NCBI GenBank assembly: GCA_964395375.1
Contig: CAYNDW010000001.1
Span: 1 to 41,867 of the forward strand
Direction of reading: 5' to 3'
Source: an uncultured Cytophagia bacterium
Lineage (GTDB): Bacteria; Zhuqueibacterota; Zhuqueibacteria; Zhuqueibacterales; Zhuqueibacteraceae
DNA: 41,867 bases
Part shown: positions 1,456 through 35,883 of the stretch, piece after piece
Position numbering within the stretch: position 1 is the first letter of the stretch
How the letters are laid out: each line of letters opens with the position of its first letter
Translations under genes and position numbers: made by a program
The notes under the pieces: model-generated
Database searches by the model: none
What the model saw: only the letters and a program-made list of their open reading frames with translations
What the model was told of the DNA's origin: nothing

Positions 1456-1749
1456 CTATACGAAATGCCTCGGGAAGTCCATTGAATCGTGCAGGATTCT
1501 TAAGATCTCCACGCCTTCAATAGTGATTCGATAGAAGATGACATGCCTACCGTCGTGGAAACTATACAAAGAATTGGCAATCTCGTCGCGTTTTTTGCCT
1601 TTCAGCGGCTGGTTTGCAAGATAAGAGAATCTGTCCCTAAGTTTTTTGATGTATGTATAACGTTGTTGCTTTCCCCATCTTCTGTCCGTGAATTGGGTGA
1701 TGTCTCTCAAATCCGCACGCGCTTCGGAACTGATGAAAAATTTTTTCAT
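1456..1749 (-). CDS. parE: type II toxin, ParE/RelE superfamily (ParE-like)
   Basis: The 97-aa protein [26 protein letters not shown]...[26 protein letters not shown] has the ParE-typical layout. Its start overlaps the stop of the upstream antitoxin ORF by 4 nt (ATGA). Confidence 0.8.
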
Positions 1750-2006
1750 GGCTTGGCGTTAGTGTACCCCAACTCTTCGTCCATCTCTTGCATGAACTGA
1801 TCAAAATCAAATTCAGCAACCTCGCCGCGATTCGCTTGCTCAAGGCCAATCGCGATTTCGCGCCTAAGTGTTTCGAGCTTCTTCTTATAAAAAGAATCGT
1901 ACTTAAGAAGAACGTCGGAGACAAACGCGGTCGCATCGGCATAGATGCCGGATGCCACTTGCGTCTTGACAATTTCAGCGGCAGAGTCTGAGAGTTGAAT
2001 TTGCAT
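1746..2006 (-). CDS. parD: type II antitoxin, ParD-like
   Basis: The 86-aa protein MQIQLSDSAAEIVKTQVASGIYADATAFVSDVLL...LRREIAIGLEQANRGEVAEFDFDQF resembles the ParD antitoxin family. It is translationally coupled to the ParE-like ORF downstream. Confidence 0.75.
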   Translation of the reverse strand: MQIQLSDSAAEIVKTQVASGIYADATAFVSDVLLKYDSFYKKKLETLRREIAIGLEQANRGEVAEFDFDQFMQEMDEELGYTNAKP

Positions 2007-2067: not shown

Positions 2068-2171
2068 TGAAAGGCTCTTGAACGAGCAAGTCATTTTCAT
2101 TCTCTATCTCGCGCCGACTCTTACATATGGCGCATAGGTGAGCTACCACTTTGTTACTTCCGTTCTGGAAG

Positions 2172-3011
2172 TTAGATTCGGCTCAACTTTCGCCATATCC
2201 ATTTTAGAAATCCCAACAGCAACATCAAAAACAGTGTCAGCAAAACGCCGAAAATAGAGAGCGAAACTGCACCCCAAAATCTATCATTGTTAAGTGCTCT
2301 ATCTTCAACCCAGGCTTGACCGACCAAAAAGCCGACAAAGATTGAAATAAAAACACCAATGCTCAAGAAACCAATTGCGCGTTTCCAATTTTCAATCCAA
2401 TGAATGCAAAGGCCAACGCCCATAATCAAAGCAGGAAACAGAAGATTGTACAAGCCACTTTCAGCAACGTTTTTTATGTACATTGCTGAAAAAAATAGTG
2501 AAGCGACTAAAGTCAAGTAGAGAGAAAGCACCCTGTGTCGAATCTCACTAACTGGTAAGCGCGAGTTATTGCGGCCTGTACGCAGTTCCTTCCCGTTTGG
2601 ATTGCTATTAGAATTTTCAAGGCACCACAGAATGCGCTTTGTCAGTTCAGTTCTAAGAGTCGATACCTTCCCTTCGTAAACTATGTGCGGATAGTGTTTG
2701 AGGTCAAAAGGAATGTCATCAGCCTTTTGAGTTAGCAGTATGACGGGCTTGTTTAAGGCATGGGCATAGCCGGCTTCATAAAGTACATTGGGATTTCGGC
2801 CAGTCATATCAGCGACAATGATATCGGCATTAGCGATCTGATTGTAAATTCGATCTAAAATACTTTCGAGGAAGATTTGCTCATCCACCCTCTCACAATA
2901 AGTGCCCGCCTCTTTGCAAGACAATTTTATTCCTAGCTCATAGACTTCATCGAACTCCTTGCTAAACGTAGTCAATGCAAACACAAAGGCTTTGGGAGGA
3001 AGCTGCCCCAT
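2172..3011 (-). CDS. membrane protein: N-terminal TIR / nucleoside 2-deoxyribosyltransferase-like Rossmannoid domain plus C-terminal ~4-TM module
   Basis: 279 aa. The N-terminal ~135 aa (KAFVFALTTFSKEFDEVYELGIK...ADIIVADMTGRNPNVLYEAGYAHALNKPVILLTQ...PFDLKH) matches the motif pattern of deoxyribosyltransferase-like/TIR-like domains, with a conserved Glu at E79. The C-terminal ~120 aa holds four long hydrophobic segments: LSLYLTLVASLFFSAMYI, LYNLLFPALIMGVGLCIHWI, AIGFLSIGVFISIFVGFLVG and FWGAVSLSIFGVLLTLFLMLLLGFL. Confidence 0.55.
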   Translation of the reverse strand: MGQLPPKAFVFALTTFSKEFDEVYELGIKLSCKEAGTYCERVDEQIFLESILDRIYNQIANADIIVADMTGRNPNVLYEAGYAHALNKPVILLTQKADDIPFDLKHYPHIVYEGKVSTLRTELTKRILWCLENSNSNPNGKELRTGRNNSRLPVSEIRHRVLSLYLTLVASLFFSAMYIKNVAESGLYNLLFPALIMGVGLCIHWIENWKRAIGFLSIGVFISIFVGFLVGQAWVEDRALNNDRFWGAVSLSIFGVLLTLFLMLLLGFLKWIWRKLSRI

Positions 3012-3061
3012 TCAACCCGCACTTTTTTTACAAGCCTTGTTTGTCAAAACCGCTTTCTCAT

Positions 3062-3140
3062 CCACAAATTAAAAAAGCTAGAAATGCTCTCGCTCTCGTT
3101 TTGCTTGCGCAGAACTCAAGCGGGCTCACTCTAGCTTTCT
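3062..3140 (-). terminator. possible terminator-like structure downstream of rplQ
   Basis: A 9-bp inverted repeat, AAAGCTAGA (3140-3130 region) with TCTAGCTTT (3082-3074), encloses a ~47-nt segment containing an inner GCTTG...CAAGC stem. On the minus strand it is followed by TTTAATTT. The large loop makes this weak. Confidence 0.25.
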
Positions 3141-3182
3141 ATTTAGCGAATCATGATTTCGAGCCAAATAAACGGCGAGATA

Positions 3183-35165: not shown

Positions 35166-35193
35166 CGAGATTTCCTAAATGTTTTACAATAAG

Positions 35194-35267
35194 CAGGCCT
35201 GGAGGGAATCGAACCCCCAGCCTTCGGTTTTGGAGACCGACGCTCTAGCCAGTTGAGCTACAGGCCT
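35194..35267 (-). tRNA. trnW: tRNA-Trp (anticodon CCA)
   Basis: Hand-folded cloverleaf. The acceptor pairs AGGCCTG with CAGGCCT, the anticodon arm reads TCGGT-CTCCAAA-ACCGA, and the T-loop is GTTCGATTC. No 3' CCA is encoded. Ends are accurate to about 2 nt. Confidence 0.9.
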
Positions 35268-35275
35268 ACACAAAA

Positions 35276-35425
35276 CTAACGTGTTTCTTTGTGCGTTGTG
35301 TGTTTGGCGCAAAAACGACAAAACTTCTTAAATTCGACTCGACCAGTATGTTTTTTTTTATTTTTTGTGGTCGAATAATTTCGGCGTTTGCAATCGCCAC
35401 ATTCAAGCGTAATAATTTCTCTCAC
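35276..35425 (-). CDS. rpmG: 50S ribosomal protein L33 (zinc-binding form)
   Basis: Below the ORF-track cutoff. Manual translation from GTG 35425, 6 nt after GAGGA, gives [49 protein letters not shown] (49 aa). Confidence 0.92.
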
Positions 35426-35469
35426 TTTACGTCCTCAAAATTGAGTTATTAACCCAAATTCGCTTGCAG

Positions 35470-35542
<73 letters not shown>

Positions 35543-35553
35543 AAATAATCTTG

Positions 35554-35626
35554 AGCGGGAGACGGGACTTGAACCCGCGACCAACAGCTTGGAAGGCTGT
35601 GACTCTACCACCTGAGTTACTCCCGC
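35554..35626 (-). tRNA. trnG: tRNA-Gly (anticodon TCC)
   Basis: The acceptor pairs GCGGGAG with CTCCCGC, and the anticodon arm reads ACAGC-CTTCCAA-GCTGT. No CCA is encoded. Confidence 0.9.
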
Positions 35627-35663
35627 ACAACCCGCTTCTGCCAAAAAATCAAAAATTAACTTG

Positions 35664-35745
35664 TGGAGAGGGAAGGATTCGAACCTCCGAAGGCGGAGCC
35701 AGCAGATTTACAGTCTGCCCCATTTGGCCACTCTGGAACCTCTCC
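35664..35745 (-). tRNA. trnY: tRNA-Tyr (anticodon GTA), long variable arm
   Basis: The acceptor pairs GGAGAGG with CCTCTCC, and the anticodon arm reads GCAGA-CTGTAAA-TCTGC. It has a class II variable arm. No CCA is encoded. Confidence 0.88.
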
Positions 35746-35810
35746 GTCGTGCATAGCTAGTTACAAAGCGCAAGTTTATCATCTTGTTTTTGCTCTTTGT
35801 CCATGCCATG

Positions 35811-35883
35811 AGCCACCAGCAGGAATCGAACCCGCGACTTCCTCATTACAAGTGAGGCGCTCTACCTTCTGAGCTATGGTGGC
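35811..35883 (-). tRNA. trnT: tRNA-Thr (anticodon TGT)
   Basis: The acceptor pairs GCCACCA with TGGTGGC, and the anticodon arm reads CCTCA-CTTGTAA-TGAGG. No CCA is encoded. Confidence 0.9.

Follow-up and report, generated by a model that had tools for sequence, protein, structure and literature searches.

Domains of the nucleoside 2-deoxyribosyltransferase (NDT) clan serve as effectors in the characterised conflict systems with which we compared our gene. The NDT-like effector of retron Ec86 depletes adenine derivatives (bioRxiv 10.1101/2023.08.16.553469), the type VIII Thoeris effector ThsI combines a cytidine monophosphate (CMP) hydrolase domain with TPR and is proposed to manipulate the nucleotide pool (bioRxiv 10.64898/2025.12.03.692087), and DrHyd has been listed among the NAD+-targeting effector domains (PMC7159879; bioRxiv 10.1101/2022.07.19.500537). 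Here we describe a gene at positions 2172-3011 (minus strand) of a 41,867-nucleotide stretch of DNA from a KSB1-division bacterium (contig CAYNDW010000001.1; "the window" denotes this whole stretch). Its product joins an NDT-like domain to a membrane module of four predicted transmembrane (TM) helices, and so gives a domain type already known, the NDT/DrHyd effector, a new architecture. A preliminary description of the gene had proposed a nucleotide sensor coupled to a multi-TM effector, encoded in a typical defence-island context.

By description, the window protein resembles the retron Ec86 (Eco1) effector and ThsI in that an NDT-clan enzymatic domain is joined to a controlling non-catalytic domain and nucleotide depletion is proposed. 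The genetic settings differ: the retron effector lies in an operon with a reverse transcriptase and a non-coding RNA, and ThsI in an operon with a TIR signal generator, whereas the window gene is a single inserted gene. No reverse transcriptase is present in the single-gene insert and no msr/msd RNA family was matched in an Rfam search of the window; likewise, no TIR gene stands beside the gene, and the C-terminal part of the protein consists of TM helices, not TPR. A likeness to the TIR-like NADase effectors of CBASS and Pycsar (Cap12/PycTIR) comes from the sole notable PADLOC match, in which residues 50-115 align with the C-terminal part of PDLC00733 (CBASS 'Effector TIR') at 2e-9. This match is partial and was obtained with every member tried of the protein family described below, and a viral protein annotated Cap12/PycTIR is the second-best structural match in BFVD to a typical member of that family. 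Unlike Cap12/PycTIR, the window gene has no CD-NTase or pyrimidine cyclase nearby, and its product has no SAVED or cNMP-binding domain and no match to PF10137. The multi-TM effectors (Cap14/Cap15, PycTM, SLATT/ThsH and the TM-macro ThsA) also place a cytoplasmic nucleotide-related domain and membrane helices in one polypeptide, but their soluble domain is a dedicated ligand sensor and their TM module a conserved family, whereas the window protein has a catalytic-looking soluble domain and an orphan TM module.

Architecture of the protein and fold of its N-terminal domain

The open reading frame (ORF) begins with an ATG at 3011, ends with a stop at 2172 and encodes a complete protein of 279 aa. 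Identical protein and DNA sequences, flanked by the same neighbours, were recovered in independent Logan assemblies from other sequencing runs. The sequence features singled out in the preliminary description were all located: FVFALTTF at residues 9-16, ADIIVADMTGRNPNVLYEAGYAHALNKPVILL at residues 62-93, which includes the conserved Glu79, and PFDL at residues 101-104. The AlphaFold2 model (mean predicted local distance difference test score, pLDDT, of 81) consists of a beta-alpha domain, a disordered linker and four long helices. Their coding segments, all on the minus strand, are 2607-3011 for the Rossmann-like NDT/DNPH1-like (DrHyd) N-glycosidase domain (residues 1-135), 2541-2606 for a polar linker rich in Asn, Ser and Arg (residues 136-157, delimited with the family alignment and the model) and 2196-2540 for the helices (residues 158-272). 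The pLDDT is approximately 85-97 over the N-terminal domain and drops below 50 at linker residues 146-152.

Profile searches met the Pfam threshold for PF05014 (nucleoside 2-deoxyribosyltransferase) narrowly, at 29.1 bits against a cut-off of 28.8. Several individually checked homologues score slightly under this cut-off, and 62 of 62 aligned homologues match the family at E≤1 (best 4.2e-8). When the model was searched against the PDB with Foldseek, ranks 1 to 30 were all NDT, DNPH1 or BcmB structures, the top matches having TM-scores of 0.65-0.72 relative to the target and E-values down to 1.2e-5; TIR structures (SPARTA TIR-APAZ) appeared first at rank 31. Of the other profiles named in the preliminary description, PF13676, PF08937 and PF10137 gave no match at E≤1 in the protein or the 62 homologues, nor did any other Pfam TIR family, PF01582 included, and PF15891 was matched weakly in 20 of the 62. 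The proposed membership in the TIR/NDT(DrHyd)/SLOG group of folds is therefore borne out for its NDT/DrHyd side, on which profiles and model place the domain with a predicted nucleophile retained, but it does not extend to canonical TIR.

In the NDT/DNPH1 family the catalytic nucleophile is the Glu of a G-x-x-x-E-x-G region (NDT Glu98, DNPH1 Glu104), and the other active-site residues include a general acid (DNPH1 Asp80) and a Tyr (NDT Tyr7, DNPH1 Tyr24). Both sequence and profile searches of the PDB aligned Glu79 (codon at 2775-2777, minus strand) to the Glu of the Rcl/DNPH1 GVGYELG motif, and Glu79 is invariant across the two family alignments (A1 and A2); it is the predicted catalytic nucleophile. 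The window protein thus has the same fold as NDT, DNPH1/Rcl and the CMP N-glycosidases BcmB/MilB, and its Glu79 aligns with their catalytic Glu. It differs from them in an identity of only 15-23%, in the added C-terminal membrane module and in belonging to a family with invariant motifs of its own, DIPFDLKH and NPNVFYE.GYAHA, and a hypervariable partner domain.

A constant enzymatic domain with variable partners

Related proteins form 3533 clusters at E≤1e-3, with E-values down to 1e-61, and for most of the matches listed (120 of the 3533 clusters) identity is 60-73% and confined to the N-terminal half. A pattern scan using one genome per species yielded 371 loci in Methanosarcina and in many bacterial phyla, including Acidobacteriota, Bacteroidota, Chloroflexota, Planctomycetota, Verrucomicrobiota, Pseudomonadota, Desulfobacterota, Bacillota, Cyanobacteria, Gemmatimonadota and one candidate-phylum-radiation genome. 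Cultured strains with a family member include Variovorax davisae J22P271, Povalibacter uvarum DSM 26723, Desulfosarcina cetonica JCM 12296, Prosthecobacter fluviatilis and Methanosarcina spelaei. Relatives were also found on 20 IMG/VR viral contigs, and in several of these (L091, L092, L103 and others) a gene for a portal protein or the large terminase subunit lies no more than about 5 kb away. These settings suggest that the viral-contig members are carried as accessory genes of tailed phages or prophages. The domain is also matched by PHROG families without assigned function, among them phrog_3634 (1e-25).

Across 62 members, mean pairwise identity is 74% in the N-domain and 24% in the C-domain. 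The model of a typical member, P0017, shows the same N-domain followed by an all-beta sandwich (pLDDT 93, predicted template modelling score 0.84), whose structural neighbours are only generic Ig-like or carbohydrate-binding-module-like folds. Other combinations also occur. A 561-aa protein (L019, 10001-11686) carries a C-terminal DUF1045/2'-5' RNA ligase-type (2H phosphoesterase) domain, P0037 is a fusion to STAS (anti-anti-sigma), and in L104 and L107 the N-domain is joined to unrelated N-terminal domains. Two loci (L016, 10001-12057; L073, 9989-11636) encode tandem pairs in which a canonical member is accompanied by a divergent paralogue with 32-38% N-domain identity and a differing C-terminal region. 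Because of the contrast in identity between the two halves and the diversity of the fusions, we describe the family as a constant enzymatic module with variable partner modules. A further fusion of 495 aa (L067, 808-2295) shows a Nudix-like motif by eye and has no Pfam match.

Copies from Methanosarcinaceae (L070 and L078, Methanosarcina spelaei) are approximately 57-61% identical to the window N-domain by tblastn and 61-64% by BLASTP over residues 6-135. To judge from the sequences, the archaeal copies imply that the gene has crossed between archaea and bacteria while its N-domain stayed strongly constrained.

This large family is horizontally mobile; its members couple a predicted N-glycosidase domain that hardly varies to a C-terminal domain that is hypervariable and, in essentially all members examined, a soluble beta-sandwich. 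Membrane helices or a hydrophobic C-terminus are absent from the approximately 200 other members examined. The family is not described as a system in PADLOC, NCBIfam or PHROG annotations or in the literature searched. Within it, the window N-domain has a normal mean identity to the other members (69.3% against 70.8 ± 3.4%) and retains 43 of the 47 columns that are conserved at 95% or more.

An orphan membrane module

A hydropathy scan detected four hydrophobic segments between residues 161 and 274, and the AlphaFold2 model, from a single sequence, places helices at residues 154-185, 188-207, 209-237 and 242-278 with pLDDT values of 58-90; hydropathy and model agree on the four long hydrophobic helices that had been noted to follow a polar linker. 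Lys and Arg are concentrated ahead of TM1, in loop 2 and at the C-terminus, in keeping with the positive-inside rule, and because of this distribution a topology with both termini in the cytoplasm fits.

Similarity to the family stops at Asn133, exactly at the interdomain boundary (alignment A1). From there the tail frame is open for 144 codons, whereas each of the other five frames contains 3 to 10 stops, and none of 20,000 composition-matched shuffles gave an open tail frame. The tail is a maintained open frame. An origin of the tail by frameshift or as a pseudogene was considered and rejected: neither tblastn with 94 homologue C-terminal domains nor a beta-sandwich hidden Markov model run over all six frames of 2000-2700 found any remnant of the beta-sandwich. 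As far as the sequences indicate, an orphan module has cleanly replaced the usual C-terminal domain.

No homologue of the four-helix module was found among 5.8 billion word-indexed proteins, and in a full HMMER pass over 1.84 billion representative proteins the sole match was the protein itself. Pfam matches of the TM part were all below threshold (8xMP, 18 bits against 30; DUF389, 18 against 23.9), and no pertinent literature was found for the 8xMP lead. The module is possibly of recent or de novo origin.

A single-gene insertion behind the alpha operon

The window is mainly the ribosomal protein and rpoBC superoperon of the KSB1-division bacterium. The L17 that it encodes clusters at 90% identity with a KSB1 protein, and KSB1 contigs bearing that L17 are the sisters used for comparison (L111-L114). 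The gene sits at the 3' end of the ribosomal alpha operon and is followed by parDE and hutU/hutI, which is not the typical defence-island context that had been proposed. In the sister contigs the order is rplQ-parD-parE-hutU-hutI, with no NDT-like gene. BLASTN against these contigs delimits a 984-bp insertion (2077-3060, minus strand) that replaces 14 nt, is bounded by flanks of 80-84% identity and carries only this gene, in line with its description as a single-gene candidate. Its GC content of 42.8%, against 50.2% for the window, agrees with the AT-rich islet noted earlier and, with the empty sister sites, confirms horizontal acquisition. GC content at third codon positions (GC3) is 44-45% in both the N-domain and the TM halves, compared with 65-66% in rplQ and rpoA. 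Since the two halves have the same GC and GC3 they arrived together.

A terminator-like hairpin with a U-run behind rplQ (3066-3146, minus strand; RNA fold -35.5 kcal/mol, z = -4.16) is the likely alpha-operon terminator. Its sequence is kept in sister KSB1 contigs (L113), and the insertion point lies immediately downstream, while the other end of the insert lies upstream of a conserved parD promoter-like site. Comparison of these sequences indicates that the gene entered one KSB1 lineage as a recent single-gene insertion just past the rplQ terminator. A search of its surroundings for flanking repeats or mobile-element footprints yielded nothing beyond short repeats that are probably chance matches. 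There is no tRNA near the insert, the Rfam search of the window finding five tRNAs only, more than 32 kb away; these form a cluster (Thr, Tyr, Gly, Thr, Trp) at 35193-35883 on the minus strand. A scan of the 49 nt upstream of the gene for a sigma-70 promoter of its own was negative, a perfect TTGACA being visible by eye with no matching -10. As previously remarked, no signal-generating gene accompanies the effector candidate: the inserted DNA contains no cyclase, TIR or SMODS gene.

The neighbouring toxin-antitoxin pair is real, with parD at 1746-2006 and parE at 1456-1749 (together 1456-2006, minus strand; Pfam ParD_antitoxin and ParE_toxin), but it does not form a shared island with the inserted gene. 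Both genes are kept between rplQ and hutU in sister KSB1 genomes at approximately 80% DNA identity, and because those genomes carry parDE without the NDT-like gene, the pair is ancestral and unrelated to the insertion. In the source annotation of L111, L112 and L114, parE is uncalled; the translation from L111 is intact and its DNA aligns like the others.

Genomic contexts of the family

All-versus-all clustering of 957 neighbouring ORFs from 104 loci revealed no conserved partner gene, no neighbour family being present at more than five loci. Across these loci the few recurrent neighbour families are phage packaging genes, ParDE is not a recurrent neighbour, and there is no linkage to nucleotide-metabolism operons. 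At the nine homologue loci annotated with Pfam, the genes are singletons wedged among unrelated genes, such as metH/fhs, HEAT/ClpB-like genes, glycoside hydrolases, ABC transporters and the rpsP-rplS operon. One of the nine lies in a clear defence island with type I restriction-modification, RES and SocA, and another adjoins an MmeI fragment. An enrichment of homologue neighbourhoods for defence genes was therefore not evident: the neighbourhoods are heterogeneous, and the defence-island association across the family is weak and not demonstrated. The family behaves as a mobile accessory singleton.

Translation or ribosomal operons adjoin three of ten inspected family loci, namely rplQ in the window (3183 onward), tuf-secE-nusG-rplK at L004 (13028-16822) and rpsP-rimM-trmD-rplS at L117 (10769-13445). 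This adjacency may reflect chance or an insertion preference beside strong terminators.

Proposed function and alternatives

From its modelled structure, the window protein is predicted to be a chimeric inner-membrane protein with a cytoplasmic NDT/DNPH1-like domain, a polar linker and a lineage-specific four-helix module. It is probably a conflict or anti-phage protein. Its best explanation, which we offer tentatively and by analogy with the described effectors, is that of a membrane-tethered N-glycosidase effector of a conflict system. The N-domain would be the effector. In its active state, probably dimeric or of higher order like NDT/DNPH1, it would split NAD+, a (deoxy)nucleoside monophosphate or another nucleotide at the N-glycosidic bond and thereby deplete an essential metabolite in the course of a conflict, phage infection for example. 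The timing and place of its action would be set by the C-terminal module. In the family at large the beta-sandwich could serve in target recognition or autoinhibition, and in the window variant the four helices could anchor the enzyme to the membrane and possibly couple its activity to membrane events. We infer the effector role of the N-domain from the invariant nucleophile, the constant/variable asymmetry of the two halves, the modular fusions and the published NDT-clan precedents. The roles are the reverse of those first proposed, since it is the N-domain that is constant and catalytic-looking, the C-terminus that is variable, and the TM module is unlike those of known effectors.

Several observations weigh against a membrane-tethered enzyme of conflict systems. 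Among approximately 200 sequences the window protein alone has Thr-Thr in place of the near-invariant Met14-Pro15 (LMPF in 184 of 188 sequences), and it alone has Leu for Phe77, near Glu79 (Phe in 200 of 202). On sequence grounds these substitutions could mean altered or weakened catalysis; they may reflect the lost beta-sandwich interface, retuned catalysis or relaxed constraint. In the HMMER alignment, made with the D80A chain 8rpt_B and its Ala at this site, the position of DNPH1 Asp80 is taken by Ile55, an acidic residue standing two positions before it, and the NDT/DNPH1 Tyr position is apparently Phe11, by an alignment made by eye as the beta1 strand lies outside the computed alignments. 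The four-helix module is known from one protein only, and all recovered copies of the gene are nucleotide-identical. Finally, most genes beside the homologues have ordinary metabolic roles or are hypothetical, clear defence genes being present at one or two of the nine loci, and PADLOC models matched numbered 100 for 113 adjacent genes and 75 for 112 genes more than 6.5 kb away, which is a weak excess at best and a crude measure because it counts families matched and not member genes.

Some of the same observations would suit a neutral or decaying chimera with little or no function, in which the beta-sandwich was lost and the frame runs through captured or new T-rich DNA that happens to encode hydrophobic helices. 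Such a chimera would explain a tail that has no homologue in either large protein search, the low-complexity, Asn/Ser-rich linker, a number of deviations at near-invariant sites that exceeds that of approximately 95% of family members, an insertion seen in one lineage and not in the sister genomes, and recovered copies without sequence variation for a test of selection. We nevertheless consider it unlikely. The tail frame stayed open in none of the shuffles while all other frames are closed. It encodes four helices, evenly spaced, long enough to span a membrane and charged according to the positive-inside rule, which AlphaFold2 recovers from a single sequence. Family similarity ends exactly at the interdomain boundary, no remnant of the beta-domain is left in any frame, and GC and GC3 are equal in both halves.

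The division of labour in the preliminary description, in which the NDT/TIR-like domain senses a nucleotide and the four TM helices kill by forming a pore or disrupting the membrane, the protein acting by itself or as the orphan effector of a signal made elsewhere in the genome, appears improbable and less likely than an effector role for the N-domain. Rossmann-like relatives can indeed bind signals, as SLOG does in ThsA, the literature describes TM effectors as common in Thoeris and CBASS, the unique Thr-Thr and Leu changes near Glu79 could mark a shift from catalysis to binding, and a signal generator could lie elsewhere in the genome, of which the window covers 41.9 kb. Against this, Glu79 and nearly all of the highly conserved positions are retained, the TM module fits no effector family, the insert brings no cyclase, TIR or SMODS gene with it, and NDT-clan domains act as effectors in the systems compared. 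Moreover, the domain's conserved role cannot be pore gating because some 200 relatives have the same domain without TM helices.

Instead of a defence protein, the product could be an accessory enzyme of nucleotide metabolism or of phage origin, for instance a deoxyribosyltransferase or an N-hydrolase with modified or immune-signalling nucleotides as substrates, carried by prophages and scattered by transfer. This alternative would suit the Pfam and structural matches to NDT, DNPH1 and CMP hydrolase, the copies beside portal and terminase genes, the PHROG match, the member fused to a 2H phosphoesterase and the prevalence of contexts other than defence islands, but it too has a low probability, as a hypervariable beta-sandwich is unexpected in salvage enzymes, the family has no linkage to nucleotide-metabolism operons and the sister genomes do without the gene.

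The membrane-tethered effector can also be read at the level of the whole family. The family, with at least 3500 clusters in many bacterial phyla, Methanosarcina and phages, might then be an unrecognised but widespread group of single-protein immune sensor-effectors, in which a near-invariant N-glycosidase would be restrained by a fast-diversifying, phage-recognising beta-sandwich. The KSB1 copy would be a natural swap of the sensor for a newly originated four-helix module, giving a membrane-tethered, nucleotide-depleting enzyme. We regard this broader proposal as possible but doubtful.

Significance

The pattern at the level of the family is the more valuable lead, the TM variant being a singleton. 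Were the family to prove a defence system in its own right, the repertoire known so far would gain a nucleotide-depletion module that is compact, common and encoded by one gene. The pairing of an almost unvarying enzyme with a hypervariable partner offers a handle for finding phage triggers. Should the gene prove inert, it would caution against calling an enzyme domain with TM helices beside a toxin-antitoxin pair a defence system. The window copy is in effect a dated natural experiment, for which we know the family of origin, the point of insertion and the 'empty site' in the sisters. The case is relevant to the origin of new TM domains and of new effector architectures, as a conserved effector domain has here become joined by recombination to a membrane module for which the databases show no ancestor.

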